DNA from: a virus
Virus genome (UHGV): UHGV-0141541
DNA: 64,000 bases
Strand: one strand, 5' to 3'
Part shown: one piece after another, positions 6,124 through 53,202 of the stretch
How the letters are laid out: each line of letters opens with the position of its first letter
How positions within the stretch are numbered: the first letter of the stretch is position 1
Position numbers and translations under genes: made by a program
Notes under the pieces: model-generated
What the model saw: only the letters and a program-made list of their open reading frames with translations
Told to the model about the DNA's origin: nothing
Database searches by the model: none

Positions 6124-7380
6124 CTATCGAGAACCACCAAGAATAACACGGTTTTTGACTGGATACCTACGATGTACTGGATAGCCCAATGCGTCTGCAC
6201 TATGCTCAATGCCACCTGTCTTATCCATATCTCGTGTTCCAGGCTTGTAGATGACTTTTTCCAGTGAATCAATCAAATGCTTGCACTTCGGATCGATATA
6301 CAGCCGGATATCTCCAGATGCGGACATCAGCATTCGGTTAACAGCATTAACACGATCCGCAATTGGCGGGTGCTTTTTCGAATAATCGACACGTAAGAAT
6401 CCCTTCTCTTTGAATATGTCTACGTCAGACTCCCCACGAGCATGTTGGCGATAAGCACCTGCCGGATCTGGAAATACCGTTACCTGTGATTTCCAGCGCC
6501 AGAAGCGTCTCTCAAGCTCATCACAAACTTCTGCCGTGTTAGAGGAAAAGAGCACCAATTCATCAATTGCCCATAGCTCACCATTTGGCTGAGGTTGCAA
6601 AATTACTGAAGACATCGGGTCAATGTTGAAGTCCTGCCCTACCCATATAGGCAACCGAGGGTTGAACTGAAGCGGTTTTACATGCACGTTACGATCGAAC
6701 GGGTAGTAAACGCGCCCGGACATGTTCTCAAAGCTGGCCAGGTACTCCTGAGCGAACGATTTGGGGTCCATATCGTTCTTAGCAGCTTCAATTTCCGCCG
6801 TAGGTACAAACGGAGAATCGGCAGTTACAAACTGCCAGCTCTTCCACTGTCCCTTTCTTTGCAGCTCTACGTTCTGGCCTATAGTCCACAGTTTGTGAAA
6901 TTCCGAGAAGCCTTTTGGCGTACCAATGATCAGTGCACCGCCGCGTGTCGATGAAAGAGTAGGTCGTAACACCTTGTACCAGGTGTCAGCCTTCATATCC
7001 TGAAATTCATCAAGCACTACAAAATGCAACGCTACGCCGCGCAGAGTGTCAGGCTTATCAGCACCTTTGAGGGCGATCTCCGAACCGTTCTTCAACACGA
7101 TTGTCATCGTGGTGTCGTTCTTTTTCCTAACCCACTTACGAGGCAGAACTTCCTGTAGATCGTCCCACAAAATCTGGCGAGCCATCTGGTAAGTAGGAGC
7201 GACATACCAGACCCTTTGCTTTTTTTCCTTTGCCGCCGCACGAATAATAGTGGAGATCGACAACCGGGATTTTCCCCAGCGTCGACCAGCACAAACAACT
7301 TTAAATCGATGCGGAGACTGGAAGACTTTCATCTGTCCAGAATGCAGTTGCACAAGACTGAGCGAGGACGGGATTGCCAT
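6124..7380 (-). CDS. terminase large subunit
   Basis: 418 aa; Walker A-like CAGRRWGKS, Walker B VVLDEF, C-terminal nuclease-like region; precedes portal. Confidence 0.85.
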   Translation of the reverse strand: MAIPSSLSLVQLHSGQMKVFQSPHRFKVVCAGRRWGKSRLSISTIIRAAAKEKKQRVWYVAPTYQMARQILWDDLQEVLPRKWVRKKNDTTMTIVLKNGSEIALKGADKPDTLRGVALHFVVLDEFQDMKADTWYKVLRPTLSSTRGGALIIGTPKGFSEFHKLWTIGQNVELQRKGQWKSWQFVTADSPFVPTAEIEAAKNDMDPKSFAQEYLASFENMSGRVYYPFDRNVHVKPLQFNPRLPIWVGQDFNIDPMSSVILQPQPNGELWAIDELVLFSSNTAEVCDELERRFWRWKSQVTVFPDPAGAYRQHARGESDVDIFKEKGFLRVDYSKKHPPIADRVNAVNRMLMSASGDIRLYIDPKCKHLIDSLEKVIYKPGTRDMDKTGGIEHSADALGYPVHRRYPVKNRVILGGSR

Positions 7381-8012
7381 TATTCGTCCTCCCCTTCACT
7401 TCCATCATCTGTCGCATCAAATTCGCTTAGAGCTTCTTCTTCCAACGTCTCAAGCAATTCGTCATCGATGATTTCAGGCTCGTCGTCTTCCTGACGTAAT
7501 TTCGCCACCTGGGAAGGCGTAAGCTCACCAAATACCAGGTTCGGAATTTCTTCCTCGTCATTTTCCGCATGATCCATGCCCAATGCTTTGGACGAAACTT
7601 CAAAGCATTTTGCAAGGGTATTACTGGCTCTCTGTAAGCTCTTGAGAGAATCCTCAATCGCCCCTAAAGGCTTACCCTCACGTTTGGCCGTAGTGACTTC
7701 GACCATCACCATCTGCCCCAACGCATACGCCCAGCCGTCATAACGTGTACGACGTTCTTCTATCTTTTCCGCACGGGCTTTAGCGCGAAGCTCTGCGTCA
7801 GATTTAAGAGACTCACGAACCATCTTCCCAACAGAGTCCGCGCCTTTCTCTAATCCTCGCTTTTTGAAATGTCTGGAGAGTGTTTCACGACGAATGCCGT
7901 ACTCTTCCTCCAGCTTTGAGAGTGTATATTCGCCTGACGTCCATTTGGCTTCAGCTTCGGCCCACTCCGCTGGTGTCAGGCGAGTTTTTACCTCGTCTTT
8001 TTCGACCGTCAT
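7380..8012 (-). CDS. terminase small subunit (putative)
   Basis: 210 aa, overlaps terL start by 1 nt; N-terminal helix-turn-helix-like region and very acidic C-terminus; RBS GAGGG upstream. Confidence 0.5.
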   Translation of the reverse strand: MTVEKDEVKTRLTPAEWAEAEAKWTSGEYTLSKLEEEYGIRRETLSRHFKKRGLEKGADSVGKMVRESLKSDAELRAKARAEKIEERRTRYDGWAYALGQMVMVEVTTAKREGKPLGAIEDSLKSLQRASNTLAKCFEVSSKALGMDHAENDEEEIPNLVFGELTPSQVAKLRQEDDEPEIIDDELLETLEEEALSEFDATDDGSEGEDE

Positions 8013-8124
8013 AGATCCCTCTAAAACACACAGAGCGCGTCCATGCGCTCTAAAACAACTTGTTTACTGCATCTGCTAACCAACTTGTTTTCTGGGGTGT
8101 TTAATTAGGTCTGGCATGTCTTAC

Positions 8125-8185
8125 GAAGCCTGCTTCCGTATATATTTAATAAGTTACTTATTATTTATATATACAGATGCAGGTC
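8125..8185. promoter_or_regulatory. IR-flanked AT-rich element (copy A), upstream of terminase operon
   Basis: GCCTGCTTC ... GATGCAGGTC arms around the AT-rich core TATATATTTAATAAG...TATTTATATATACAGA; near-identical to 37174-37233. Confidence 0.5.
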
Positions 8186-8207
8186 TTTAAATAAGCTCCC
8201 AGACCGA

Positions 8208-8474
8208 TTACATCACCAGTAACTTCGCTTTGGCTCGACCTAAAGTGGTTAACCCAAGAGTTCGGCGGTGATAGCGATTGTCACTGCGTTGGCGCGTATG
8301 CCCTTTCTCCACCAGCCCCTTTTTTATCAGAGCGCGAATTGAGAACTGGATACTTTGCTTGGTTGTCTTGTACGGCAAAACTTCAAGCAATTCGTCCAGG
8401 TCAAGTAGATGACCTCGCTCATAACCGAGATTGAGCGTTTTGATGATGTCCTTTTGTTTATCGGTTAACGTCAT
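8208..8474 (-). CDS. small basic putative winged-helix DNA-binding protein
   Basis: 88 aa, last gene of the ParB/ATPase/GNAT operon; helix-rich basic sequence; fold assignment is a guess. Confidence 0.4.
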   Translation of the reverse strand: MTLTDKQKDIIKTLNLGYERGHLLDLDELLEVLPYKTTKQSIQFSIRALIKKGLVEKGHTRQRSDNRYHRRTLGLTTLGRAKAKLLVM

Positions 8475-8483
8475 GGCAAATCC

Positions 8484-9374
8484 TTATGCCGGTAAAGCAA
8501 TTTCTAACGGTTTATCCAAAGGTTGTTTGTCGAATGCCAGCAGTGGCAGCGTGTCAGGCAGTCGACGGCCAAAGTCAGGGTTTCGGTACACACCATACAA
8601 CGGAGACGTAAAGCTCAGGTTGTGAATGTCCTTGAGCAGCTTCACAATGCTGGCCTCGTCCACCAGACTGTCGGCAATGTCCTGAATCGTCGTGCCACGA
8701 TTCCGCCCAGCTTTTGCCAGGGAACTGTTCTTGTGGTAGTCCGCCACCAGATCACGCAGTGCACGGCGACGACGAGACTCGCTCATTGCGAACAACTCTT
8801 TGACGATCGCCTCGTTATCACCCGGGTCGGAACGGAAATGGCGCTGGAATACACGCAGTGCACTTTCATAGCTCTTCGGTCGCTCAGGGCGGATGAACTT
8901 AAACCCTGCTTTCATGGCGAAGGGATTGTATTTGCTCATCGAGGACTGGATCTCAATGATTGGCCGGTCATGCATCCTGCTAACTAGGTTAATCATTCGA
9001 TAAGAGACGCCTACGCCACGATACTGAGTATCCACAACTGAGCGACTGATCACCGCAAAGTTGTTATTCACGTACCGACCCCAGTACTGGTTAGCCACGG
9101 TGGTATTAGTGGTTGGTTTCAACTTAGGAAACATGCGGTGGCGAGGTGCCAGCAGTAGTTTCGGGTAAGCCATAACCACGACGCCCACCAGACGGTCATC
9201 AAGTTCGCAGCGATAGTAAGTTGGCGCGAAAGGTTTGCCGTCTGTTTTGTAGTGAAGCGACTTAAGAGCGTGCCAGTCCTCTACAGTTCCCTTTGTGACA
9301 GTCATTCGCTCCAGAAAGTCCAGATGACGCGGAAACTCTTCAGGGCGGTAGCGTTTAATGATGATGTCCGTCAT
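8484..9374 (-). CDS. GNAT-family acetyltransferase domain protein with C-terminal extension
   Basis: 296 aa; GNAT motif A-like VDTQYRGVGVSYRMINLV and motif B-like NPFAMKAGFKFI; 4-nt overlap with upstream ATPase gene. Confidence 0.55.
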   Translation of the reverse strand: MTDIIIKRYRPEEFPRHLDFLERMTVTKGTVEDWHALKSLHYKTDGKPFAPTYYRCELDDRLVGVVVMAYPKLLLAPRHRMFPKLKPTTNTTVANQYWGRYVNNNFAVISRSVVDTQYRGVGVSYRMINLVSRMHDRPIIEIQSSMSKYNPFAMKAGFKFIRPERPKSYESALRVFQRHFRSDPGDNEAIVKELFAMSESRRRRALRDLVADYHKNSSLAKAGRNRGTTIQDIADSLVDEASIVKLLKDIHNLSFTSPLYGVYRNPDFGRRLPDTLPLLAFDKQPLDKPLEIALPA

Positions 9375-10036
9375 AAATGAACCTCATCATGACTACCATT
9401 GTGATATTCCACCTTCACGCGTTCTTTGTAGTGCTTGGTGATCTGCATATCCGGGCGCAGCGCGTTCTTCAGGTCTTCGTGAGTCGTCGCCACCATTACC
9501 GTCGCACCAACCTTTCGAGCGGCACGCTGGAGGTTAGATGCCACAACCTGAGCGGTTACACGGTCTAGAACAGCACCGAACTCGTCAGCAGCCCACACTT
9601 TAGCGCCTGACTCAATCAGTTTGGCAATCTTGAGACGATATTTCTGACCGTCTGACATTTCAGAAGGCTTGCGAACAAACAGATATGCATCGTTCAGACC
9701 AGCCATAGATAACAACCCAAGCGCATCGCTGGTCGTTTTGCCCAACTGATCGATGACGTTAACCTCATTATCGAAGGTAAAATCATCGATGGAGGCTACA
9801 GACAGCCCTTCATCCTTCATCTGTCGTTGCAACTCGCGCAGCACAACGGATTTGCCGGAACCGGATTGGCCGGTGATGTACACCACATCGCCCTGCTTCA
9901 CTTCCAGCTCCAGATTGTCGTAAAGCGTCCACTCTTTTTCGTCCAGGCCAAGCCCGAACGACTCAGCGATTTCCAACGTGCGCGTGGTTTTATTTACGCG
10001 TGTCTGAAACGATACGTTGATGATGTATTTGTTCAT
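9371..10036 (-). CDS. ABC-type ATPase (nucleotide-binding domain only)
   Basis: 221 aa; Walker A GQSGSGKS, ABC signature-like SDGQKYR, Walker B VWAADEFG, H-loop TTHE; no transmembrane partner adjacent. Confidence 0.7.
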   Translation of the reverse strand: MNKYIINVSFQTRVNKTTRTLEIAESFGLGLDEKEWTLYDNLELEVKQGDVVYITGQSGSGKSVVLRELQRQMKDEGLSVASIDDFTFDNEVNVIDQLGKTTSDALGLLSMAGLNDAYLFVRKPSEMSDGQKYRLKIAKLIESGAKVWAADEFGAVLDRVTAQVVASNLQRAARKVGATVMVATTHEDLKNALRPDMQITKHYKERVKVEYHNGSHDEVHL

Positions 10037-10734
10037 GCAGCCATCTCCCCGGAAGAGATCTTCTCCGCATATGCCACAAATGCGTCTACCCCGCTTTCTC
10101 CCGTCATTTCTTCCATGTGGGCAAGCAAATCACCAACAACAATGGCAGAGCCAGCAGGAAGCGTTTTAAAGCCCAATACGTCGACAACACGTACTTCTTC
10201 CGCTGCAACTTCACGACTGATCTCGGTGTGTTCATCCTTCTGTCGTTTAGTTTCTTCGCCAAGATCGATAACTAGCGAGTCGGTGTCCATTTCTTCTGTC
10301 ATGCTGCCAACGAGAACATTCAACTCACGCTCTTCAAAGCCGAAAACCTCGATATCGTCCAGAACAAGCGACTCAAGCTCTTTCTGTAGCTTAATTGCAT
10401 CGTAATCAATGCTGGCAAGTCGGTTATCTTCAAGGCGCTTCGCACGAACCTCGTCATCACTGAGATCATCGCGAACAATAACCGGTACGCGCTCAAGTCC
10501 AGCAAAAATTGCAGCCTCACGGCGGCCGTGGCCAGTAATAATTACGTCGTTCTTATCGACCGTAATTGGCTGGTCAAATCCGCGCTTTTTAATGGCTGCG
10601 GCTAGATCTCGGATCTGCTGTTCATCATGCTTTTTGGCATTCATCTCATAGGGAATAAGATCTGCCGGGTCGCGATATACGATTTCTAACTTTTTGGTCA
10701 TTACATACGCTCCTTGTAGTAGTCGACCAGCCAC
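10033..10734 (-). CDS. ParB N-terminal (ParB/Srx-like nuclease) domain protein
   Basis: 233 aa; ParB box ITGHGRREAA; acidic C-terminal half; real start may be MTKKLEIVY at 10702. Confidence 0.7.
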   Translation of the reverse strand: MAGRLLQGAYVMTKKLEIVYRDPADLIPYEMNAKKHDEQQIRDLAAAIKKRGFDQPITVDKNDVIITGHGRREAAIFAGLERVPVIVRDDLSDDEVRAKRLEDNRLASIDYDAIKLQKELESLVLDDIEVFGFEERELNVLVGSMTEEMDTDSLVIDLGEETKRQKDEHTEISREVAAEEVRVVDVLGFKTLPAGSAIVVGDLLAHMEEMTGESGVDAFVAYAEKISSGEMAA

Positions 10735-11399
10735 ACCAGAGCCTCACCAGCGTTCTCCATTTCATTACCGGTGTTAATAGCCTGCTCTTTGATGATGTTT
10801 TTTATGGTTTCTGCAACACGATCTGACGCATCGAAAGTTACTTTGAAGCGCATGGTCTGATGTTCCGCACCCACACGTTCGGTTTTCTCTCGTTTGTCGG
10901 TATCGACAGGCTCATCACTACCACGAGACAACGCCTCCAGTGCTTCAAGGTCGATTGCCGCCTCTTTTGCTAAAACCATCGAGATTTCGTCGTCATACGG
11001 GGCGATTTCAGACAGCTGATAGTCAAGTTCTGACTGAATTTCTTCAATGAAGCGTTGCAATGCGATTTGGTCGTCTTCACCGTATCGCTCGTTGTCCACC
11101 AGTGACATCTGTTTAGCTACGACATCGCTAATTTTGCCCACAGAAAGCACCGGAACCGTTGAAATTCCTTGCTCAATAGCAGCACGCCAGCGATGTTCGC
11201 CGCCGAGGATTTCAAAAAATCCATCTTCAAGTTCACGAGCCAAAATTGGCTTAAAAAAGCCCAATTTTTCGATAGAACCTTTCAGTTTTTCAAAATTCTG
11301 CGCACCAACCGAATTGGTGTTCCAGGTATTCGGGCGAAGGTTGGCAACATCAACCTGCAAAATCGTGATTTTTACATCCATTTTATTGCTACAATCCAC
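10701..11399 (-). CDS. ParB N-terminal domain protein (second copy)
   Basis: 232 aa; ParB box ILGGEHRWRAA; directly upstream of first ParB-like gene; start may be MDVKITI at 11381. Confidence 0.7.
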   Translation of the reverse strand: MDCSNKMDVKITILQVDVANLRPNTWNTNSVGAQNFEKLKGSIEKLGFFKPILARELEDGFFEILGGEHRWRAAIEQGISTVPVLSVGKISDVVAKQMSLVDNERYGEDDQIALQRFIEEIQSELDYQLSEIAPYDDEISMVLAKEAAIDLEALEALSRGSDEPVDTDKREKTERVGAEHQTMRFKVTFDASDRVAETIKNIIKEQAINTGNEMENAGEALVWLVDYYKERM

Positions 11400-13799: not shown

Positions 13800-14324
13800 A
13801 TGACAACCAAAGATATTACCTACGGTATCCAAGCTGAACTCTGGCCGCGAGATTACACTAACGTTGAAAAACTACTGATGTTCTGGCGCAGAGAACAAAT
13901 TCCTGTAAGGGTCACTCTCGAAGATGGCCAGGCGTTTTGCATGTACGTTTATGGCCTCATGCCATCTCGTAACAAAGTTGACCTTTGCCCAGCCCCTTTT
14001 GACAAAGAAAATCGTATAAGGCTCCCACTTGAACGCATTAGTACAATTGAATCAGGTGTGGTTGACAGTATCGCTCACGATTTCAAAGGTCGACTAACAG
14101 TTCACCCTGATTATGTCGATAATCGGCCATCACGCCGCGATTTTTTTGCAATTTGCAACCAAGCCTACAAAGCAAACAAATCTATAAGGGTGTACATGGC
14201 GGATGGCCGTGAAATTGAGGGGGTGTCAGCAGGCGCAGATGCTTGTCAGGTTACACTACGTGTCGAGAACGGTAGAAAAATAGTTGTTTTGTTCGATTGG
14301 GTTGAACGAATTTTGCCTTTTTGA
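13800..14324 (+). CDS. hypothetical protein
   Basis: ORF track 13764-14324; start moved to MTTKD just after the upstream stop. Confidence 0.5.
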   Translation: MTTKDITYGIQAELWPRDYTNVEKLLMFWRREQIPVRVTLEDGQAFCMYVYGLMPSRNKVDLCPAPFDKENRIRLPLERISTIESGVVDSIAHDFKGRLTVHPDYVDNRPSRRDFFAICNQAYKANKSIRVYMADGREIEGVSAGADACQVTLRVENGRKIVVLFDWVERILPF

Positions 14325-14919: not shown

Positions 14920-15570
14920 ATGGCTAACATTATCATTTCTAAAAAGTCCATCATTGAAGCTGCATCTATTGTATCCGACGAGCTGCGCGAAAAAGCAGAT
15001 CTGGCAACTCAAACATATAACGAACATTATAAATATGGTACGCACACTAAAGCAGACAAAGCAAATATGCAAGCTGCGACCACTAAACTTGCTTACTTCA
15101 TCAACAACGTCGTAAACGCAGTAGAAGACGAAAAATTATGCTCTGTTTTCTACTATGCGATTAAAGCAAGCAAACAAGCGCCAGAAGTATTTTTCCGTGA
15201 TGCAATGACTAATAGTTATTCTCTGGAAAAACTGGTTTATCTGGTTAAATCAATTAAATCTGGTAAATGCGTTTATTCCATCGCTGATATGTCAGGATCT
15301 CGTGTATTCGCTTTAATCGATATGATTAACGACGAGATCGACACGTTCACCAATGGCGCTGTTTTCGATTTAATGAATGAAGCTAAAAAAGCGTGTGAAA
15401 TTAAATTGGACGCTGGCTATACTCAAGCCAACCAGTTGATCAATCTTTGCGAACGTCTCGGACTTGTTGAAAAAGTCAAAGGAGCTGGGAGCGCCAAAGC
15501 TGGTACGCAGCAATATCGCTTCATTAAAAATGATTTCTACAATTATTTAGCTGATGCTTTCAAAGCGTAA
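14920..15570 (+). CDS. hypothetical protein (AT-rich accessory cassette gene 1)
   Basis: 216 aa; strong RBS AGGA; markedly AT-rich relative to surrounding genes; no motif recognised. Confidence 0.6.
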   Translation: MANIIISKKSIIEAASIVSDELREKADLATQTYNEHYKYGTHTKADKANMQAATTKLAYFINNVVNAVEDEKLCSVFYYAIKASKQAPEVFFRDAMTNSYSLEKLVYLVKSIKSGKCVYSIADMSGSRVFALIDMINDEIDTFTNGAVFDLMNEAKKACEIKLDAGYTQANQLINLCERLGLVEKVKGAGSAKAGTQQYRFIKNDFYNYLADAFKA

Positions 15571-15583
15571 TTAATGGAATCAA

Positions 15584-15603
15584 GCGCCCACTATGGGCGC
15601 TTT
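15584..15603 (+). terminator. intergenic hairpin (attenuator) within cassette
   Basis: GCGCCCA-CTA-TGGGCGC followed by TTT; the identical 17-mer recurs at 16080. Confidence 0.45.
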
Positions 15604-15618
15604 AAAGGAGCTTTAAAA

Positions 15619-15822
15619 ATGGTCAGCTATGACAAGATCCGCGCAGAATATCGCGCAAAGTATCGCGCTTATAAACTGGAATTAATCGATGATTTGATCG
15701 CGCAACGCGACCAATTAAATTTTACGTTTTCTGATTTGCTTAACAGCAAGCGAGATTGCAAGCGCAAACGTGAATACTTACGTTTAAGCGCATTAATCGG
15801 AAAACTTCAAAATTCTATTTAA
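15619..15822 (+). CDS. hypothetical protein (cassette gene 2)
   Basis: ORF track 15574-15822; start moved to MVSYDK (RBS AAGGAG 9 nt upstream) because the upstream part overlaps the hairpin; 67 aa. Confidence 0.5.
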   Translation: MVSYDKIRAEYRAKYRAYKLELIDDLIAQRDQLNFTFSDLLNSKRDCKRKREYLRLSALIGKLQNSI

Positions 15823-15842
15823 TTTTTTTAAGGAGCTTAATC

Positions 15843-16073
15843 ATGTTTGTTCTTATCGCTGGCGTTAACGTCCATAACGAATATTATGTTAATCGCATCG
15901 CTGGGATCGCTGGTTACGCTGGGCGCGCAGTCGAGCTTATAGATGAAACAACGCGCAAAATTGACTTATTGAGCGACCAGGAGCGAAAAAAAGCAGACGT
16001 GAACGACGCTGATATATTTTTAATGTTAAAAGCGTTTGTAGAAATGGGATTTGAAATCAGTTTACATAAATAA
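15843..16073 (+). CDS. hypothetical protein (cassette gene 3)
   Basis: 76 aa; RBS AAGGAG; AT-rich. Confidence 0.5.
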   Translation: MFVLIAGVNVHNEYYVNRIAGIAGYAGRAVELIDETTRKIDLLSDQERKKADVNDADIFLMLKAFVEMGFEISLHK

Positions 16074-16078
16074 AATCG

Positions 16079-16103
16079 AGCGCCCACTATGGGCGCTTTT
16101 TTC
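16079..16103 (+). terminator. intrinsic terminator
   Basis: GCGCCCACTATGGGCGC hairpin followed by TTTTTT. Confidence 0.6.
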
Positions 16104-16123
16104 GTTTCCAATACTTCCACCAT

Positions 16124-16149
16124 AACGCGCCATCATTGGCGCGTTTTTT
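16124..16149 (+). terminator. second tandem intrinsic terminator
   Basis: ACGCGCC-ATCATT-GGCGCGT hairpin followed by TTTTTTA. Confidence 0.6.
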
Positions 16150-16559
16150 ATTGTCTTTAGCTCACTCCAACAACATAAAAATAAGCGCCAAAATAACGCC
16201 ATAGACGCGCTTTTATATCCTTGTCAGTACATACCCATTACTTAACACATTAACGCGCTTAAAATGAGTTATATTGCGCTATAACGTATGGCTAATCATT
16301 AATTTTTATTCTTGCTATGTGATCCGCGTTTATTTGTCGGCGCGGATCGGCATTTTGTTTTGTTCCGTATCCGCTCGCGTATTATGTGCGCGTGATTTTT
16401 CACATAATCACACCACTTAATCACGTATGTGATTACGCTACGAAAGAAATCTGGATGTCTCAGGCGACGAAAGTCATCATAATTTTCCCCGCTCACCTGT
16501 CCGACAACCGCTGGTTGGATTCCACCAGCTTCCCGATGTTTTTTCTACACAAAGGCGAA

Positions 16560-16680
16560 TGCAGCCGTTTCCCGAAAAAATCCTGGCCGTTCCCCGTCGG
16601 CTCATGAATACGTTCCTCGCCGTTTCTGAAAATTTCCCTGCGGCAGCTGGTGGCTATAGAGAAAGGGCCGTTTCTGGCCC
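16560..16680. repeat. iteron-like direct repeats, consensus GCCGTTTCCCGAA (4 copies)
   Basis: copies at about 16564, 16586, 16619 and 16668 in a noncoding stretch; same family recurs at 19690-19830. Confidence 0.6.
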
Positions 16681-16689
16681 TCTTCTCAG

Positions 16690-17172
16690 TTACACGCCAT
16701 CAAGGATGTGGATGCGGTTGCTTGCGTATACATTCAGCATAAAGTTAGCGCAAAACAGTTTCCATGTATCAACGCCAGCGGTATACGTAATGTTTTTGCA
16801 TTTAATTGCATTGTTGGCGATCCGCATCCCCTGCGATACTGCTTCATCGTCGGAAAATTTGAACGACGATTGAGTTTTAATCCAGACAGAAATCTGCGTA
16901 GCGAACTCAATCAGCTTGGACTGGCAGAATCGCCCGGAGCGCACCGGAAAGACGAACGTTCCGAATCCAGAATTTACCACATACGCTTTCTCAAATACCC
17001 GCGAGTAACGACGATTGCCAATGATGTCGCGTGCAATAATGCATTTTTCTTGTGCTGACAGTTCTACCGTCTCATTGTCGCGCCATGCACCAAGTACTCG
17101 TTTTTCAATGTCAGAGAACGTTACAGCGATATTGCCATGTGCGGGTGCGTTTACAGTAGCGATAAAATTCAT
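16690..17172 (-). CDS. hypothetical protein
   Basis: 160 aa ORF preceded by the AACAAATTGTTTTCT motif at 17194-17226. Confidence 0.5.
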   Translation of the reverse strand: MNFIATVNAPAHGNIAVTFSDIEKRVLGAWRDNETVELSAQEKCIIARDIIGNRRYSRVFEKAYVVNSGFGTFVFPVRSGRFCQSKLIEFATQISVWIKTQSSFKFSDDEAVSQGMRIANNAIKCKNITYTAGVDTWKLFCANFMLNVYASNRIHILDGV

Positions 17173-17522
17173 GATTAATTCCTTATCGTAAATAACAAAT
17201 TGTTTTCTTGTTGGCGTTAATTATCGTTGTACGAATAAGGCGTCAAAGTGGAAAGTTACGGTAGCCGGACGGGAACAGGTGGGTTTGTCGGTTGCCTGGA
17301 GGTAAGAGGTTGGTGTTTTTAGCCTGCGGGAAACAAGATGGTCATTTAAGGCCACCAATGCTGATGGCCTTAATAATTATCGCCCGATTACGCTAAGGAT
17401 CTTTTCCTCAACTGATTTGTTGTTGCGACTAAACTGCCTTGCGTATCTGATGACAGAAGAGGCGTTTTGCTTTCTGACCATCTCGGCTCTTTCCTTCAGG
17501 CGTTTCTTGAAATCGCCCATAT

Positions 17523-17897
17523 TTACCACCAGGCGCAGAAGGTCAGTCTGTTATTGTGAAAGTCGTGGTTCTTAATCAGATCTTCCACAAGCTCTTTCAA
17601 CTCCCCCACATCATGCCAGTAACCTTCATCGTACTCCTGACTGCCGAAGAAAAAACCTTCCCGGGTAGGCAAGTACTCTTCGCAATTACTTTCGTTTATG
17701 TGCATCAAATGAGCTTTCAGAAGACAAATGTCATTCATCGTTAATTCTAAAAGCTCACAATTTTCGACTTCACCTACGTTGCGCTCCATCCACCCAACGA
17801 GCGCATTGAACTTACGGAAGTAAGCAACCTGCTTTCTGGATGCCTCGTTATTCAGATCGTTTTTAGGCTGTGTCTCGATATAGATATCAAGTCCCAT
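17523..17897 (-). CDS. hypothetical protein
   Basis: ORF track 17523-17939; start moved to MGLDIY (RBS AAGGAA 6 nt upstream); W/C/H-containing C-terminus. Confidence 0.5.
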   Translation of the reverse strand: MGLDIYIETQPKNDLNNEASRKQVAYFRKFNALVGWMERNVGEVENCELLELTMNDICLLKAHLMHINESNCEEYLPTREGFFFGSQEYDEGYWHDVGELKELVEDLIKNHDFHNNRLTFCAWW

Positions 17898-18014
17898 GAT
17901 GGTTTCCTTATTAAGTTGCTTCAGTGAAATCATTTTCACAAATCAGATAAGGCAGAAAACAAATTGTTATCGGGCTTAATAAAATGGCGCGGTTTACGCG
18001 CCATTCAAAGAGGA

Positions 18015-18410
18015 TTAAGCGAATACGCTTTCAGGAATTAAGGTGTCAGCAGGAATGCCGGAGGTAATGCGCAGGCCGTACTGACCAATCCAGGTAGTGT
18101 TGGTATTCAGGCTGGAGGCGAATACGGTGTTAACCATATTCATCATGGTTTCAAACACCTCTTCATCAACCTGGCGGAAGTAGTTCTCGATTTTCAGCAG
18201 CAGCGGGTCAGTTGCATCGAAAATAGACTGGTATTGAGTCGCGTACTCGCCGCCGGAGGCATCACCTTTACGCACGATCGTACTGGCCTGGACTTCGGCA
18301 CCAGTTTCGGTGTTGTACGTAACAACGGTGATTTTTGCCACATTCTTACCTTCGGCGGTTTCAGAGGCATAGTAAACATCAACTGTCAGTTTTTCGCGTT
18401 TAACGGTCAT
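18015..18410 (-). CDS. hypothetical protein
   Basis: 131 aa; RBS GGAGAG; followed by hairpin terminator AATGGCGCG-GTTTA-CGCGCCATT. Confidence 0.5.
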   Translation of the reverse strand: MTVKREKLTVDVYYASETAEGKNVAKITVVTYNTETGAEVQASTIVRKGDASGGEYATQYQSIFDATDPLLLKIENYFRQVDEEVFETMMNMVNTVFASSLNTNTTWIGQYGLRITSGIPADTLIPESVFA

Positions 18411-18474
18411 TTCACTCTCCGTAGTGTCTTAGTTATTTTTATATTTTATAGTCGTAAGTATGTACTTACAATAC

Positions 18475-18503
18475 AAAAAGCCCCGTAAGGATGGCGGGGC
18501 TGT
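18475..18503 (-). terminator. intrinsic terminator
   Basis: minus-strand hairpin GCCCCGCC-ATCCTTA-CGGGGC followed by TTTTTG, after the 18536-18850 gene. Confidence 0.55.
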
Positions 18504-18535
18504 CGTACTGTCGACTAATTACCACTTGCACATTA

Positions 18536-18850
18536 TCAGGCTATTGCCATCACTGATGCTCTCTGAATCTCTTGCTGGGCCACGCGGTTAACTTCCATCA
18601 AAGCCAGTTCGAGCTGATGTTCCGGCCACATTCTTTGAAATGCCACCCAGCCTTTTCCACGCTGGCGACGAACATTCATTACATAACGAGTAAAGGTGTT
18701 TTTATCGAAAGACACCGCTGTTTCACGGAACAGACGAATAGAGGTTCCATTGGCAACGATGTCCAGCAAAGTTAATTGAGCAACCAGCGCAGGCTTCTCT
18801 TTTCGCTTCTGGTCTTTGTCCAGACCAAGAACCAATGATTTTTTCATCAT
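18536..18850 (-). CDS. hypothetical protein
   Basis: ORF track 18536-18877; start moved to MMKKSL (RBS GGAG) because the upstream part overlaps the conserved intergenic motif. Confidence 0.5.
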   Translation of the reverse strand: MMKKSLVLGLDKDQKRKEKPALVAQLTLLDIVANGTSIRLFRETAVSFDKNTFTRYVMNVRRQRGKGWVAFQRMWPEHQLELALMEVNRVAQQEIQRASVMAIA

Positions 18851-19000
18851 AACTCCGTAAACAACTTGTTTTCTCAATGGCGTAAATAATACCAGTAAGA
18901 AAACGGCTACAAAGCATATTGATCAGGCGCATGAGCGATATGCAGGTTCTTCCCTGCGGCTACAGAGAAGTTAAGCCAGCAATGCTGGCTTTGGTTGGGT

Positions 19001-19330
19001 TTACTCGAATACCTCAAGAAACTCCTGAACGTCCCAATGCTGGACAAGATGAAGATAGACCTTAGAAATCACGTCATTCTCGCTATCGCATGTGAAGTAG
19101 TACTTCTGGCTGCGGTTGTATGTGTCCACACAAAATTCGCTCATATCCATAAAGTCAGCATCTTCACCCAGGTCGCAAATCATCAAAGCAGGTGCGTCAT
19201 CACGAGTCATCAGCTCAAGCACCCACCGCGAATTGATCAGAGTGGAAGACCAACCTTCTAACTCATAAAACTGATCAAACTCTTTTTGAGTTAATTTCTT
19301 GATTTGGTTGATGTCGATATGTGCAAACAT
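19001..19330 (-). CDS. hypothetical acidic protein
   Basis: ORF track 19001-19351; start moved to MFAHIDIN (RBS AAGGA 7 nt upstream). Confidence 0.5.
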   Translation of the reverse strand: MFAHIDINQIKKLTQKEFDQFYELEGWSSTLINSRWVLELMTRDDAPALMICDLGEDADFMDMSEFCVDTYNRSQKYYFTCDSENDVISKVYLHLVQHWDVQEFLEVFE

Positions 19331-19342
19331 AAAGCAATCCTT

Positions 19343-19375
19343 AAACAACATGTTTTCTTATTGGTGTTATTATCG
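19343..19375 (-). promoter_or_regulatory. example of recurrent dyad motif family 1 (AACAAnTTGTTTTCT-TATTGG-N-TAATTATCG)
   Basis: AAACAACATGTTTTCTTATTGGTGTTATTATCG immediately upstream of the 19330 start; near-identical copies listed in findings. Confidence 0.5.
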
Positions 19376-19689
19376 TAATAACGCACAGGCGAAAAAGGAT
19401 TTTATTCCGGTGAATGTTGTTTTGGCAGTGAGTTTTCAGGTTCAGTACCGAGTACACTTTTTACATTATTCTGATTTAGTGGCCGAAAGTGGCTGGTGGG
19501 TAGAATAATCCTCTCCCCGGAAACCTACTGAAATCGATTGTGACCCGTTGGCTGTCTGGCACAATTACGCTGTAACTGGGTATTCAGAGGGAGTCCAACG
19601 GTAAGTTAGTCCGCCTGCACGTGAGCGCCTCTCTTCTTCCCGCACATTACAGGTGGGTAGCTGCAACTCTCCCTATCGCTATACCGGTA

Positions 19690-19830
19690 CGCCGCCGTTC
19701 CTGAACCGGCATCGAGCCTTTTCCCGAAACCCACACAGGCAACTCGACCGTTTCCCTGAAAATCCCCAGCCGTTCCCCGAAGGCAACCCAGCCGTTTCTG
19801 TAGCGGGATGCAGCCTTTTCCCTGTATGGA
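19690..19830. repeat. iteron-like direct repeats, consensus RCCGTTTCCCGAA (6 copies)
   Basis: copies at about 19693, 19715, 19745, 19767, 19789 and 19811. Confidence 0.6.
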
Positions 19831-19859
19831 CCGAAGGCTAACCGTAGGGGTGTTACGGG

Positions 19860-20780
19860 GGGATAAAATCAGGAGTTGAATAAATACGAAAAAGGAGGCG
19901 ACACCCCTCCTTCCCTCCCCACTTATACATACCTGGCTTCTTCGCTATACATGTTGTGTTTTCTTCGTGTTTTATCTGTCTCAACCTCTCTATAGGCGTT
20001 AATGCTCACTCCTTCCAGAACGTTCTATACGGCGACTATTTCTGTTGGTGAATTGGGTGTGTTGTTCTCTCTGTCGGTGTATGTGGTTTCGTTCGTTTTG
20101 CGGTGGTTCTTCTATGGGGTGTTCTCGTCGTTTTGGTGATTGTTCTTCTCCGTGTATGGAGTAATGGCAGGTGGGCGATTCCTTTCGTTATTGTGTTTGA
20201 GTTGTTTGTCTGGAGTGCGTGAAGGGCTTTTGTAGTTATTCGTGTATTGGGTAATGGCGTTTCCCGTGATTGTTATGTTTCGTGTCTTTTGGGATTGAGA
20301 GAAACCTTGCGGTTACAGGCTTCGTTGGGGTTTCAGCGGTTCAGGTGTTTCTTCGCTGTTTGGGTAATGGCGTGTCGTGGGTATCGCGCGTATGAATGTT
20401 TTCGGATTGCCTGTGAAAGTTAGGTTGGTTGTCCGGTAGCCTGGGGAGAAGAGGTGGGTCTTTTCGGTAGCCTGCCATAAAGAGGTTGGTTGTTTTGGGT
20501 AATGGCATATGTGTTATTTGGTTGTTTTGTTATGCCTGAAAATAAGTTGTTTATATGGTTGTGTAACGCAACGGGAGCGATTTTGAGCGTGTGTTTTTGT
20601 TGGTAGTGTGTTGAGTCGTCTGTGGTGAAATTTGGACGCTGTGGCGCTATCTGCTGCGTAGAATTACGGGTATAAGAAGTGATGTGTGATAACGTCAATT
20701 TTTTAGACCAAATCGGGAGAAAGCGTTGATGTTTCGTTGATCTGTTATTTAGTTGTTTTCTTATTGGTATAAACAACCAT
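19860..20780. other. GT-rich noncoding tract with internal repeats (no credible ORF)
   Basis: strong G+T excess on the given strand; repeated GGGTAATGGC (about 4 copies) and a ~60-bp unit shared with 17259-17320. Confidence 0.5.
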
Positions 20781-20895
20781 AACCTATTGATATTTAATGA
20801 TGTGATTGCTGGTATGGGAGGGTAGTAGTGGCGATCAACGGGTTCTTATAGAAAAGAATCAAATTGTGACCGCCATTATCAATAAGTTGCAACCG

Positions 20896-21501
20896 TTAGT
20901 TGTTCAGATAAACATTTGGAACACGGACGTAGAACTTACTGTTACCGGTAAGTTCCAGAGTAATGTTAATGTCATTACCATTGTCTAGTGTAGCCGTCGC
21001 TCTATAGAACTTATCAGTTACCTTTTCGTCAATATTAACCTTGATGCATTTCGCCGCAGTAGAACCATTATGCTCTTTCAGAATAGTTGTCACGACAGGA
21101 CATGCGGCTTCCTCAATGACGCCATCTTCCTGTTTCGGTATTACAATGAAGAATACGTAAGCCAGCAAGGTAACGACTATAATAAATGGCAGTCTACTGC
21201 TCTTTGTTATAGTCGCACGCTTCCATAGGTAGATTGGTATGAAAACTATTCCCCATAAAATAGCAGGTGGCTCATAGCCGGATTCCGAAATCGCCATTCT
21301 GTCAGCCACTAATAATCCGATGGCAGCTAAACTTCCAATTAATACAGCATAATTTGCATACTCTTCGTTCGGAATGCCGAAGCAAATTGGAATAAAAGCT
21401 AAAATCCACGCATAAGTGTTATTCAAAGGTTTTTTTTGTTGGTTATTGGTTTCCATCACATCCATCTCATCACTTAAATTACTTGTATATATTATCAACA
21501 T
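20896..21501 (-). CDS. multi-pass membrane protein of unknown function
   Basis: 201 aa; several hydrophobic segments; lies in an AT-rich stretch; start uncertain (M1 or MDVMET). Confidence 0.5.
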   Translation of the reverse strand: MLIIYTSNLSDEMDVMETNNQQKKPLNNTYAWILAFIPICFGIPNEEYANYAVLIGSLAAIGLLVADRMAISESGYEPPAILWGIVFIPIYLWKRATITKSSRLPFIIVVTLLAYVFFIVIPKQEDGVIEEAACPVVTTILKEHNGSTAAKCIKVNIDEKVTDKFYRATATLDNGNDINITLELTGNSKFYVRVPNVYLNN

Positions 21502-22260: not shown

Positions 22261-24294
22261 TTACTTAACCTGGTGGCCAGGTTTAGCACCAGCATCCGGG
22301 CTTAACAGGAAGATATCTTTCCCGCCGGGGCCAGCAGCCATCACCATGCCTTCAGAGATACCGAAGCGCATTTTACGCGGAGCCAGGTTAGCCACCATAA
22401 TGGTGTGACGACCAATCAGTGCCTGTGGATCTGGATAAGCGGAACGGATGCCTGAGAAGACATTACGCTTTTCACCACCGAGATCCAGCGTCAGGCGAAG
22501 CAGTTTGTCAGAACCTTCGACAAACTCCGCGTTTTCAATCAGCGCCACACGCAGGTCAACTTTGGCGAAGTCGTCAAAGGTGATGGTTTCCTGAATCGGG
22601 TCGTCAGCCAGTGGGCCAGTTACCGGTGCAGCTGTGGCTTTCACTTCTTCTTTGGATGCTTCCACCAGTGCTTCCACCTGTTTCATATCGATACGGTTAT
22701 ACAGTGCCTTGAACGGATTCACTTTATGGCCCAGCAGCGGTTGCTGGATACCATCCCAAGTCAGTTCTGTATTCAGGAATGCTTCTGCACGTTCAGTCAG
22801 TTTCGGCAGTACCGGTTTCAGGTACGTCATCAGCACGCGGAACAGGTTAATGCCCATAGAGCAAATCGCCTGCAGATCGGCATCGCGTCCTTCCTGCTTC
22901 GCCACCACCCACGGAGCCTGTTCATCGACATAGCGGTTAGCCAGATCAGCCAGCGCCATGATTTCACGAATCGCTTTACCAAATTCGCGGCTTTCCCATG
23001 CTTCACCAATCACTTCAGCGGCATCAGTAAAGGTTTTGTACAGTTGCGGGTCAGCCAGTTCGCCTGCCAGCACACCGTCAAAACGCTTATTGATAAAGCC
23101 CGCGTTACGGGACGCCAGATTCACCACTTTGTTCACGATATCGGCATTCACGCGCTGAACGAAATCCTCCAGGTTGAGATCGATATCATCAATGCGCGAA
23201 GAGAGTTTCGCAGTGTAGTAGTAACGCAGGCTGTCAGCGTCAAAATGATTCAGCCAGGTGCTGGCTTTAATAAAGGTGCCGCGAGACTTGGACATCTTCG
23301 CACCGTTCACCGTCACATAGCCATGAACAAACAGGTTGGTCGGCTTGCGGAAGTTGCTGCCTTCCAGCATGGCAGGCCAGAACAGGCTGTGGAAGTAAAC
23401 GATATCTTTACCGATGAAGTGGTACAGCTCGGCGGTGGAGTCTTTCTTCCAGTATTCGTCGAAGCTGGTAGTGTCGCCGCGTTTGTCGCACAGATTCTTG
23501 AAGGAACCCATGTAGCCAATCGGTGCGTCCAGCCAGACGTAGAAGTATTTGCCCGGTGCGTTCGGAATTTCAAAACCGAAGTAAGGTGCGTCACGGGAGA
23601 TATCCCACTGTTGCAGGCCAGATTCAAACCACTCCTGCATTTTGTTTGCCACCTGCTCCTGCAACGCACCGCTGCGGGTCCATGCCTGCAACATTTCGCT
23701 GAAAGAAGGCAGATCAAAGAAGAAGTGTTCGGAATCACGCATTACCGGTGTAGCGCCAGAAACCACTGATTTCGGCTCGATCAGTTCCGTCGGGCTGTAG
23801 GTCGCGCCGCAGACTTCACAGTTATCGCCGTATTGATCCGGCGCTTTACATTTCGGGCATGTGCCTTTTACAAAACGGTCCGGCAGGAACATGCCTTTTT
23901 CCGGGTCGTACAGCTGAGAGATGGTGCGGTTTTTAATAAAACCGTTCTCTTTCAGGCGAGTATAGATAAGCTCGGACAACTGACGGTTCTCTTCGCTGTG
24001 CGTCGAGTGATAGTTGTCATAGCTGATGTTAAAGCCTGCGAAATCAGTCTGATGTTCCTGACTCATTTCGCCAATCATCTGTTCCGGTGTGATACCAAGC
24101 TGCTGTGCTTTCAGCATGATTGGCGTACCGTGGGCATCGTCGGCACAGATGAAATTAACCTCGTGGCCGCGCATTCGCTGGTAACGAACCCAGACATCAG
24201 CCTGGATGTGCTCCAGCATATGGCCGAGGTGGATTGAGCCGTTAGCGTACGGCAGCGCGCACGTCACCAGAATTTTCTTCGCGACTTGGGTCAT
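22261..24294 (-). CDS. metG: methionine--tRNA ligase, host-type
   Basis: 677 aa starting [26 protein letters not shown] (HIGH motif), KMSKS present, C-terminal tRNA-binding domain; the 720-aa ORF-track start is an upstream extension. Confidence 0.95.
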
Positions 24295-24451
24295 AGTAGG
24301 CATTACTTCTTTGTAGTGAAAAGGGGCTTGATAGTAACAAAATGGCCTTATGTCTGCCATGTGATAACAGCATTTCTCATAAATGATTAAATGTCGTAGC
24401 TGGAGTACACTACAAGGCGACAATTGCGCAAATTAAAATAAAGGAGACGGG

Positions 24452-25552
24452 ATGAGCGAGTCCAAATCGCCGGATGCCCTGAGAGCAATGGTAGCCGGTA
24501 CGCTGGCTAATTTTCAGCACCCAACCCTGAAACACAACCTGACTACGCTTAAAGCGTTACACCATGTTGCGTTGATGGATGACACACTGCATGTCGAACT
24601 AATCATGCCTTTCGTGTGGAATAAGCCTTTTGAAGACCTGAAAGAGCAATGTAGTGGTGATCTGCTCCGTATCACTGGCGCAAAGGCTATTGACTGGAAG
24701 CTGTCGTACAACATTGCCACGCTTAAGCGCGTCAAAAACCAACCAGGCATTAATGGCGTTAAGAACATTATCGCCGTCAGCTCAGGCAAGGGCGGCGTGG
24801 GTAAATCCTCCACGGCGGTAAACCTGGCACTGGCGTTGGCTGCTGAAGGTGCGAAAGTTGGTATTTTGGATGCCGATATCTATGGTCCATCAATTCCAAC
24901 CATGCTGGGCGCGGAAAACCAACGTCCAACCTCACCTGACGGTACTCACATGGCACCTATCATGTCTCATGGCCTGGCAACCAACTCTATTGGTTATCTG
25001 GTCACCGACGACAATGCAATGGTGTGGCGTGGACCGATGGCCAGCAAGGCGCTGATGCAGATGTTGCAGGAAACTCTATGGCCTGATCTGGACTATCTCG
25101 TTCTCGATATGCCGCCGGGCACTGGTGATATTCAGTTGACGCTGGCGCAGAACATTCCTGTAACTGGTGCGGTTGTGGTAACTACGCCGCAAGACATCGC
25201 GCTGATCGATGCGAAGAAAGGCATTGTGATGTTCGAAAAAGTCGAAGTGCCGGTACTGGGTATCGTTGAAAACATGAGTGTGCATATTTGCAGTAACTGC
25301 GGTCATCACGAGCCAATTTTTGGCACCGGTGGCGCACAGAAACTGGCCGAGAAATACAACACGCAGTTGTTAGGCCAAATGCCACTTCATATCTCTCTTC
25401 GTGAAGATCTGGATAACGGAACACCAACCGTTATTAGTCGTCCAGATAGCGAATTTACAGCTATTTATCGTGACCTCGCAGATCGCGTTGCTGCCCAAAT
25501 GTATTGGCAAGGTGAAGTAATACCTGGCGAAATCGCATTCCGCGCAGTGTGA
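24452..25552 (+). CDS. apbC: iron-sulfur cluster carrier protein ApbC/Mrp, host-type
   Basis: 366 aa; deviant Walker A SSGKGGVGKSS, CxxC motif (CSNCGH); divergent from metG with 157-bp intergenic region, the arrangement I recall for E. coli. Confidence 0.93.
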   Translation: MSESKSPDALRAMVAGTLANFQHPTLKHNLTTLKALHHVALMDDTLHVELIMPFVWNKPFEDLKEQCSGDLLRITGAKAIDWKLSYNIATLKRVKNQPGINGVKNIIAVSSGKGGVGKSSTAVNLALALAAEGAKVGILDADIYGPSIPTMLGAENQRPTSPDGTHMAPIMSHGLATNSIGYLVTDDNAMVWRGPMASKALMQMLQETLWPDLDYLVLDMPPGTGDIQLTLAQNIPVTGAVVVTTPQDIALIDAKKGIVMFEKVEVPVLGIVENMSVHICSNCGHHEPIFGTGGAQKLAEKYNTQLLGQMPLHISLREDLDNGTPTVISRPDSEFTAIYRDLADRVAAQMYWQGEVIPGEIAFRAV

Positions 25553-34824: not shown

Positions 34825-35013
34825 TCAGAAATAACCAAGTACCGAACCGACTGGAAAAATAAAAATCCCAACTACACGAGCCAAGGTCATGCCAGCCTGA
34901 AACTGGAGATCGCCAGAGCAAACAAGTTTTATAATGTTCGATACCCAACCGGCGGCCATGAGGGCAAGAATTGCCAGCCAAATTTTTCCAAAGTGATTTG
35001 AAAACCAGTTCAT
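34825..35013 (-). CDS. small two-TM membrane protein
   Basis: 62 aa with two hydrophobic segments. Confidence 0.45.
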   Translation of the reverse strand: MNWFSNHFGKIWLAILALMAAGWVSNIIKLVCSGDLQFQAGMTLARVVGIFIFPVGSVLGYF

Positions 35014-35022
35014 ACAACCGCC

Positions 35023-35517
35023 TTAGTCACAGCATGATCCTGAGTAACTGGATGAACTTGAGGTATCGCATCCACCGCCATCCCATCCAGAGTGACAGGA
35101 CGCTCCACTGGAGTGGTGGTAATTGTCGTCGACGAAGGTATGGTGATGGATGAATCCGGCATCAAAAGGCTCTGACCGGCTGGAACGGCTACCGTCGCCA
35201 GTGAAACTATAATGAGAACGTAGGCCATTGGTTTCAGCCTCTTTCTTTGAAAATTTTCCATTCGAACTGTCCTTGTTGTTTTTCTCCTTCACTAAAGGCC
35301 GTGCATTTTTCGCTTCGCGTGAAGAACCAGAGGCAACAATCGCCCCCACGTTCGCAACAACTGACGCTTGATTATCTAAACGTTCATTCAGCAACCGAAC
35401 GGTAGTCTCTAGTTCATCAAGGCGTGACATAACACGACCGCTAAATAATTCGGCCAAAATTTGACGTAAAGAACGAGGACGTTTAGTTACAGAAGTGAAA
35501 TAGGTTTGACGTGCCAT
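35023..35517 (-). CDS. hypothetical protein with coiled-coil N-terminus and S/G/C-rich tail; contains nested alternate-frame ORF
   Basis: 164 aa; nested ORF 35010-35261 encodes a Pro/Thr-rich protein with a signal-like segment. Confidence 0.45.
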   Translation of the reverse strand: MARQTYFTSVTKRPRSLRQILAELFSGRVMSRLDELETTVRLLNERLDNQASVVANVGAIVASGSSREAKNARPLVKEKNNKDSSNGKFSKKEAETNGLRSHYSFTGDGSRSSRSEPFDAGFIHHHTFVDDNYHHSSGASCHSGWDGGGCDTSSSSSYSGSCCD

Positions 35518-53182: not shown

Positions 53183-53202
53183 TGAATGACAAAGGTGTCC
53201 AC

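Follow-up and report, generated by a model that had tools for sequence, protein, structure and literature searches.

Two helically phased direct-repeat arrays conserved in SSU5-type phage-plasmids: candidate iteron- or centromere-like protein-binding sites

Introduction

Why should a phage that lives as a plasmid keep two clusters of the same short direct repeat, about 3 kb apart, on either side of a set of small genes? The question is raised by UHGV virus genome UHGV-0141541, of which a stretch of 64,000 nucleotides (nt), called here the window, was analysed; all positions are counted from its first letter unless stated otherwise. The left and right clusters are referred to below as array A and array B. 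Judged by its sequence, the window comes from an SSU5/pHCM2-type phage-plasmid of E. coli. Positions 15500-21000 show 100% identity, over the tested stretch, to the E. coli plasmid pS2-S1K81-2 (NZ_CP107145.1, 111,932 bp; window coordinates are those of the record minus 58,730), which is non-mobilizable, and 95-97% identity to the Escherichia phages CMS-2020a, PhiR41_1 and Cyrano. The gene content includes a RepFIB-like replicon, structural and terminase genes, nucleotide-metabolism genes and the element's own DnaB-like helicase, primase and DnaE, with almost every gene on one strand.

Phage-plasmids of the SSU5/pHCM2/pKpn/pMT1 type are common in clinical Enterobacterales, where they carry resistance and virulence genes. 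In the papers searched, no report was found on these repeats, or on any cis site of the family other than the RepFIB-type replicon. The arrays are described here as a new, widely conserved iteron- or centromere-like array, the kind of element itself being already known.

Phased Arrays of One Asymmetric Site

The repeat is an asymmetric site of about 12 bp, with the consensus CAGCCGTTTCCCGAAA and the core GCCKTTYCC. Nine true copies are present, three in array A and six in array B, and all of them point in the same direction, on the plus strand. The first-pass annotation of the window had listed six copies at 19690-19830, all of which were recovered, and four at 16560-16680, where only three are genuine. 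The supposed fourth copy, at 16667, falls within a terminator-like hairpin. In Klebsiella elements and in SSU5, this hairpin reads GGGGC..GCCCC instead of GGGCC..GGCCC, and such a compensatory change identifies the 16667 sequence as a terminator stem rather than a conserved repeat unit. A partial TTTC..GAAA symmetry is also seen in the copies, but its presence and spacing vary from one copy to the next, whereas the conserved core is asymmetric.

The spacing, initially described as irregular, turns out to be regular. The copies start 22 and 33 bp apart in array A, and 22, 31, 22, 22 and 22 bp apart in array B. Distances of 22 bp and of 31-34 bp correspond to two or three helical turns, which places all the copies on one face of the helix.

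This phasing and clustering is far beyond chance. Six same-strand matches to [GA]CCKTTYC are found within 150 bp, whereas 300 dinucleotide-preserving shuffles of the window usually gave one and reached a maximum of three only once. A weight matrix built from 21 sites scores the sites of the two arrays at 15.7-24.6 bits (19-23 bits for each copy in array A), and detects no site above 14 bits outside them in the 111,932-bp plasmid. Only three families of local repeat arrays were revealed by k-mer scans of 112 kb, namely the RepA iterons, the present motif and four copies of TTGGGTAATGGC beside array B. The RepA iteron unit differs from the array motif, so that kinship between the two was rejected; the earlier statement that the repeats are distinct from the rep iterons at 53-55 kb is therefore sound.

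Conservation among Relatives

About 95 loci share the core and the 22-bp register. Both arrays occur in most of these relatives, with the same core, strand and phasing, in elements from Klebsiella, Salmonella (SSU5), Enterobacter, Kluyvera and Buttiauxella, as well as in a K. oxytoca plasmid of the pCAV type and in three contigs that are more distant. Among 80 loci from IMG/VR, array A is found in 78, with two or three sites at 22 and 33/34 bp spacing, and array B in 66. The strand of the arrays remains constant relative to the neighbouring genes. Array B was also detected in 244 of 5,426 complete E. coli genomes, always on plasmids and never annotated; the region carries no annotation in RefSeq.

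The copy number of array B is 6, 5, 3 or 2 according to the lineage and changes in 22-bp steps, the successive spacings being 22/31/22/22/22 in E. coli, 22/31/22/44 in Salmonella and Enterobacter, 22/22 in Klebsiella and 24/22 in distant elements. The distance between the two arrays ranges from 1.5 to 4.5 kb, and the proteins encoded between them share only 36-88% identity across the lineages compared. Yet when 71 and 63 distinct sequences were aligned, the arrays and the DNA directly flanking them ranked with the non-coding columns that are conserved best. In Y. pestis pMT1-type loci, array A is kept with three correctly spaced sites and in two paralogous copies, whereas array B is missing, together with the GT-rich element described below and with p131 and p104, two conserved genes of the block.

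The non-coding nature of the direct repeats, already proposed in the first-pass annotation, is borne out by this comparison. Since the copy number shifts in 22-bp steps, with indels of that size even between close relatives, the arrays cannot be coding. The open reading frames (ORFs) lying over array B (19653-19841 on the plus strand, 19606-19734 on the minus strand, SSU5_109 and PhiR41_1 XSB42478) are not conserved among relatives, and coding over this array was rejected.

Shielded Location and Enclosed Genes

Both arrays lie in gaps shielded from transcription, because each of them stands directly behind terminators (Table 1). Array A occupies a convergent gap, between a plus-strand operon ending at 16073 on its left and the minus-strand gene 16690-17172 on its right, and the hairpin stack on the left shields it from transcription of the p216 operon. 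It is followed by a conserved tail, TTTCCCTGCGGCAGCTGGTGG, which contains a Chi octamer at 16646-16653. Array B is located about 290 bp from the nearest promoter (measured to the -35 box), that of gene 19001-19330, and its terminator shields it from upstream transcription.

Table 1. Positions of the arrays, of their flanking elements and of the genes for candidate binding proteins.
Feature	Position	Strand	Description
Array A	16564-16631	+	Three copies: 16564-16576 (GCCGTTTCCCGAA), 16586-16598 (GCCGTTCCCCGTC), 16619-16631 (GCCGTTTCTGAAA)
Array B	19694-19825	+	Six copies, at 19694, 19716, 19747 (ACCGTTTC), 19769, 19791, 19813
Four stacked terminator-like hairpins	16078-16098, 16124-16145, 16320-16349, 16376-16392	+	Between p216 operon and array A
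Terminator-like hairpin	16665-16680	-	GGGCC-gtttct-GGCCC; ends gene 16690-17172
Enclosed block, six small ORFs	16690-17172, 17377-17529, 17523-17897, 18015-18410, 18536-18850, 19001-19330	-	Most with own sigma-70-type promoter
Strong intrinsic terminator	19889-19915	-	About 60 bp before array B in the minus sense; in all relatives aligned
GT-rich non-coding element	19916-20775	-	About 0.9 kb; CA-rich minus strand, GT-rich plus strand; four TTGGGTAATGGC; 30-bp CGGTAGCCTGG..AGGTGGGT repeats
p216	14920-15570	+	216 aa; about 1 kb left of array A; N-terminal helical bundle and C-terminal winged-helix domain (structure model); best candidate binder
Two ParB_N paralogues	10033-11381	-	222 and 226 aa; adjacent genes; alternative candidate binders
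TerS-like protein (terS)	7380-8012		210 aa; PHROG 'DNA binding domain'; fourth candidate binder
Type Ib ParA, then ribbon-helix-helix (RHH)-like protein	34988-36015 of NZ_CP107145.1, outside the window		ParA 222 aa; RHH-like protein 117 aa, with basic tail and strand-helix pattern KSRTMSLEDEY..
RepA iterons	53081-54824		Unit GTATGCTGYCAGCGGT; two clusters, either side of repA

The arrays do bracket a gene block, as first described, but this block comprises six minus-strand ORFs over 16690-19330, not four small genes over 17523-19330. The block proteins are fast-evolving and the gene content between the arrays is variable. None of the six proteins has a match in Pfam, NCBIfam, PADLOC or the PDB, nor in libraries of anti-defence and defence proteins. 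For the universally adjacent protein of 160 aa, a fair structure model was obtained (pLDDT, the model's per-residue confidence score, of 80), with no significant fold match. The block genes carry a general palindromic operator, AAACAAnTTGTTT.

The GT-rich element lies between a promoter-like module and the terminator next to array B. It shows an extreme strand bias, with a plus-strand GC skew of up to +0.5 and a G-poor minus strand, and its conservation from E. coli to SSU5, Klebsiella, Kluyvera and Buttiauxella is about 72%. The element is always found with array B, both being lost together in pMT1-type loci. It may correspond to a long unstructured RNA, to a Rho-loading zone or to an R-loop-prone origin element. 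Its TTGGGTAATGGC copies, which form the third repeat family, start at 20158, 20248, 20361 and 20497, with irregular steps of 90, 113 and 136 bp, and number four to six in relatives. The CGGTAGCCTGG..AGAGGTGGGT repeats, each about 30 bp long, are found in three copies upstream of the gene for the 160-aa protein (17256-17347) and in two copies in the GT-rich element (20431-20495), and are conserved in relatives.

Two other kinds of element were considered and rejected. Structured RNA does not fit, since Rfam gave nothing at gathering scores, the array B flank folds like its shuffles (300 nt, 19400-19700; z +0.5 and +0.8) and the arrays stand behind terminators; the four weak Rfam matches below the gathering threshold, at E<=1, all fall in the terminator stack (16058-16185). 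The ends of a transposon or recombination sites do not fit either, the two clusters being direct and not inverted.

Candidate Binding Proteins

The best candidate for a protein recognizing the arrays is p216, a choice based on its proximity to array A and on their joint retention in pMT1. The p216 family is confined to SSU5-type elements, with 85-88% identity in SSU5-, Klebsiella-, Kluyvera-, Buttiauxella- and pMT1-type loci and 53-64% in the most distant elements, and it co-occurs with array A in nearly all loci. The winged-helix domain seen in the structure model resembles the MarR/ArsR type. A fold search with p216 in BFVD returned nothing below E 0.01, and no Rep-family match was obtained in Pfam, NCBIfam, PHROG or the PDB, either for the six enclosed proteins or for the flanking proteins encoded at 14920-16073 and 20896-21501. 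The p216 gene is preceded by a sigma-70-like promoter (TTGCAA-17-ATAATT), without the palindromic operator of most other promoters.

The two ParB-like proteins reported nearby by the first-pass annotation are indeed two ParB_N-domain proteins. One of them contains a GEHRWRA box, of the GExRxRA type, and matches Spo0J at E 3e-9. As an alternative to p216, the two paralogues could act as a heterodimer reading an asymmetric parS. They are part of a conserved operon (7380-11381) which encodes ParB_N, ParB_N, an ABC-type ATPase, a 296-aa and an 88-aa protein, the TerS-like protein and TerL. The same operon is found in the pCAV-type and Acinetobacter AB-type phage-plasmids, a sign that the ParB-like pair may have a function linked to packaging.

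The RHH-like protein encoded after the type Ib ParA is another possible adaptor. No repeat array is found beside this operon, and the parA promoter does not contain the array motif. The RHH-like protein is present in 797 plasmids, none of them in Yersinia, and the ParA/RHH pair is absent from the Yersinia pMT1 plasmids, which use a P1-type par system. Since pMT1 has an intact array A without the RHH adaptor, the ParA/RHH pair is disfavoured as the user of the arrays, whereas p216 is not.

A Cis Site for Partition or Another Function

Conserved, helically phased, non-coding and transcription-shielded arrays behave as protein-binding cis elements do, and from this we infer that the arrays are almost certainly functionally constrained, cooperative one-face binding arrays for a sequence-specific protein. 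The first-pass proposal of centromere-like, pac or regulator binding sites is thereby retained as far as a protein-binding cis element is concerned, although pac is not favoured. Of the outcomes named there as speaking against it, absence from relatives and coding in relatives were checked, and neither was observed. Being among the few repeat arrays and the most conserved non-coding DNA of the element, the arrays are very probably one of the missing cis sites of the family, a list which includes the centromere, the lytic origin, the packaging site and the immunity operators.

Among these functions we tentatively prefer, while holding it to be far from assured, a centromere-like site, bound by p216, at which the low-copy plasmid prophage would be paired or partitioned. 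A sequence-specific protein of the plasmid-prophage state, encoded by the element, with p216 as best candidate, would coat each array cooperatively, and the resulting complex would serve as a pairing or partition site for the 110-kb plasmid. Array A would be the core site and array B an auxiliary one, able to bridge to A and to loop out the gene block of about 3 kb. Active partition is expected for such a large element, since a cell contains about 5.5 copies of its relative Cyrano (PMC9928086). A type Ib ParA/RHH pair without a neighbouring array and two ParB_N proteins without a known site are encoded by the plasmid, and the arrays are its only free repeat arrays besides the RepA iterons and the TTGGGTAATGGC repeats. 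A design of this kind, in which winged-helix or RHH adaptors bind direct repeats in split blocks, is moreover known from tubC, parC and the parS of pSM19035 (PMC5016525).

Several observations weigh against this partition role and against p216 as the binder. Centromeres are normally found next to their par genes, but 40 kb separate the arrays from the ParA operon, and the motif is lacking at the parA promoter. pMT1 keeps array A without the RHH adaptor. The p216 operon contains no partner nucleoside triphosphatase (NTPase) and the p216 promoter no array site, while a Serratia contig retains p216 with only a decayed array. Covariation cannot discriminate between the candidate binders, because the motif core is invariant, even where p216 is only 53% and the RHH protein 50% identical. 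The geometry, too, is more characteristic of replication iterons than of most centromeres, the 12-bp core being followed by a variable spacer at a period of 22 bp.

This last point leads to the possibility, unlikely on balance but deserving serious attention, that the arrays are an iteron-type element, providing the initiator sites of a second (lytic or auxiliary) origin or a copy-control locus acting by handcuffing. An asymmetric core and variable spacer at this period are the classic iteron geometry known from R6K, RK2 and F, and the RepA iterons of the same plasmid likewise form two clusters flanking a gene. An element with its own DnaB-like helicase, primase and DnaE would need a lytic origin, and no other repeat array is left in the plasmid; a gene for a winged-helix protein stands beside array A, and the strongly GC-skewed element of 0.9 kb always accompanies array B. 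Other findings count against this reading. A single relaxed DnaA box is found 170 bp from array A and none near B, with no cluster at either; no AT-rich unwinding element lies beside the arrays, which have 53-58% GC. p216 combines one winged helix with a helical bundle and not the WH1-WH2 fold of Rep proteins, its likeness to Rep being limited to a generic winged helix, and none of the six enclosed proteins looks like an initiator. Replicon typing in PLSDB moreover recognizes a single replicon, and array A sits at a convergent gene junction.

The bracketing of the gene block could alternatively reflect a regulatory loop or insulator, an explanation to which we give a slightly lower chance: a prophage-state protein, p216 or another, would pair the two arrays and so isolate the early-type block of about 3 kb, by silencing it or by acting as a roadblock to read-through. 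The arrays do enclose exactly a set of independent small transcription units, each array standing behind a terminator at the block edge, and array A separates the convergent transcription of the p216 operon and of the block. Array B, the GT-rich element, p131 and p104 are jointly missing in pMT1-type elements. The operator-less promoter of p216 lies on the strand opposite the lytic genes, and the plus-strand block to which p216 belongs includes genes that are expressed in lysogeny in Cyrano (PMC9928086). However, neither array overlaps a promoter, array B being about 290 bp from the nearest -35 box and array A next to none, and the block genes already have the general operator AAACAAnTTGTTT. 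The distance between the arrays varies threefold in relatives, from the shortest to the longest loci, and array A persists without B.

A packaging signal appears improbable, whether as a pac site or as the borders of a terminally redundant early region, which either the ParB_N proteins or the small terminase would recognize. In its favour, the arrays are polar, and their whole-turn spacing would suit wrapping on a ring-shaped small terminase; the ParB_N genes are co-oriented with terS and terL and directly upstream of them. Long terminal repeats of T5 or SPO1 carry small host-takeover genes, and the enclosed genes look like early ones, being small, often acidic in product and equipped with their own promoters, while TerL has distant T5-like relatives (24-25% identity). 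TerL is nonetheless equally close to headful Jersey-like phages, and the arrays are 8.5-12 kb from terS/terL, whereas pac sites usually lie in or beside terS. pMT1 has array A only. The arrays do not coincide with the start or end of any public record or contig, and no published report of termini was found for the SSU5-type family. Contig breaks were rejected as a guide to physical genome ends, since the recurrent ones map to metG, a duplicated host gene. Least probable is the absence of any sequence-specific function, the arrays being then a conserved relic or a recombination anchor at the boundary between the conserved plus-strand block and a variable cassette. The variable gene content between the arrays would agree with such an anchor, as would the BLAST homology of some Klebsiella phages to the window, which starts exactly at the first repeat of array A. 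Yet a near-invariant core and register were kept while the neighbouring proteins diverged to 50-70%, changes in copy number respect the 22-bp register, and the arrays rank with the best-conserved non-coding columns.

A further reading, which we consider distinctly unlikely, is that the arrays and p216 together constitute an unrecognised maintenance module of SSU5-type phage-plasmids, in which p216 would bridge the two arrays or sister plasmids, either without an NTPase, like pSK1 Par, or by recruiting the orphan type Ib ParA. If true, such a module would explain the segregation of a widespread family of plasmid prophages of 100-110 kb, which is found in 4.5% of complete E. coli genomes and includes Y. 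pestis pMT1 and S. Typhi pHCM2. Knowing the binder would help in curing, incompatibility typing or tracking of these plasmids, and a conserved orphan winged-helix protein would gain a function.

Comparison with Known Systems

The arrays share features with several known systems. Like plasmid centromeres, they are repeats in non-coding, non-transcribed DNA, conserved with the element. In the type III TubZRC systems (pBtoxis, pBsph and phage c-st), tubC, the site of TubR, is placed immediately before tubR-tubZ and consists of abutting units. In the present arrays, 22 bp separate the units and 3 kb the blocks, no TubZ is encoded, and p216 has an extra N-terminal helical bundle. The type Ib and type II centromeres (R1 parC, pB171 parC1/parC2, pSM19035 parS1-3 and TP228 parH) are direct-repeat arrays, sometimes at two or more loci, recognized by small dimeric adaptors (PMC5016525). 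Their units of 4-11 bp abut or nearly do so, overlap the par promoter and adjoin the par genes, in contrast to the 22-bp period of the present arrays and to their location, 40 kb from parA and not beside adaptor and motor genes. The classical parS is a 16-bp palindrome. The site described here is asymmetric and tandemly phased, without a palindrome of about 16 bp, and the ParB_N genes are 5 kb from the arrays, within the terminase operon and with no adjacent ParA, unlike the ParB-parS systems.

A parallel to p216 comes from single-protein partition: in staphylococcal plasmids, pSK1 Par recognizes a group of direct repeats located close to its own gene. This protein and RacA/RocS associate a winged-helix domain with an oligomerising helical domain and act without a dedicated NTPase (PMC11500499). 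p216 similarly joins a winged-helix domain to a helical domain, but in reverse order compared with pSK1 Par, its winged helix being C-terminal; the winged helix is of the MerR type in Par and of the MarR/ArsR type in p216, and the two proteins have no sequence similarity.

The iteron clusters of theta replicons (P1 incC/incA, F ori2/incC, RK2 oriV and R6K, as well as P4 ori/crr) are same-orientation clusters flanking genes, kilobases apart and bridged by the initiator. The two arrays have the same general design, with an asymmetric repeat, a conserved core, a variable spacer giving about 22 bp and two same-orientation clusters flanking genes. They differ in that no recognizable Rep, helicase or primase gene lies between or beside them, and in that the RepFIB-type replicon is located elsewhere and uses a different iteron.

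Neighbouring Sequence Features

Two small inverted repeats are located left of array A (16376-16440), ATTATGTG..CACATAAT and AATCAC..GTGATT. They are shared by E. coli and SSU5 and deleted in Klebsiella, and one of them overlaps a terminator-like hairpin and a relaxed DnaA box.

With 12 copies of the Chi octamer GCTGGTGG in 64 kb, where 1.4 would be expected, the window has the same Chi density as the E. coli chromosome. Near the arrays it is found at 16522 (minus strand), 16646 (plus) and 19492 (plus). The Chi directly after array A and the one 200 bp left of array B are both kept in most relatives.

In the Acinetobacter AB-type relative A. baumannii NZ_CP043470.1 (locus L103), the syntenic position (19036-20387) is occupied by a 1.35-kb non-coding region full of other repeats, TATCTATCTAT, TTTCTACATTTCTATA and ACTTGGGT. 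The Acinetobacter AB-type relatives have neither a GCCGTTTCC motif nor a p216 homologue.

The palindrome AAACAAnTTGTTT is contained in a longer conserved module (..CGATAAT-TAACgCCAAtAAGAAAACAAnTTGTTT..), located 20-30 nt before the start codons of many minus-strand genes. Its sites in the window are 17188-17222, 17954-17978, 18854-18888, 19338-19372 and 20741-20775; examples in NZ_CP107145.1 are at record positions 3212, 32023, 36051, 66783, 66808, 80843, 80894, 92757, 93486 and 103705. The genes preceded by the module include the parA-like gene, the DnaB-like helicase gene, the terminase operon and nrdA. The layout of the module suggests a -10 box and, at about +8 to +25, an operator. The palindrome could serve the master repressor as its operator or be a promoter element specific to the phage, and the RHH partition adaptor might also bind there.

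The element also carries the host gene pair metG-apbC(mrp), at 22261-25500, arranged divergently as in the E. coli chromosome. This pair, about 6.5 kb right of p216, is where many draft and IMG/VR contigs of relatives break, presumably because it is a duplicate of chromosomal DNA. A full-length protein of the FljA family is encoded in the plus-strand block, at 13800-14324 (PF03614, 'repressor of phase-1 flagellin', E 1.5e-84), with an Hfq-like stretch. This protein is conserved across the phage-plasmid family and may be a lysogenic-conversion factor acting on host flagellin.

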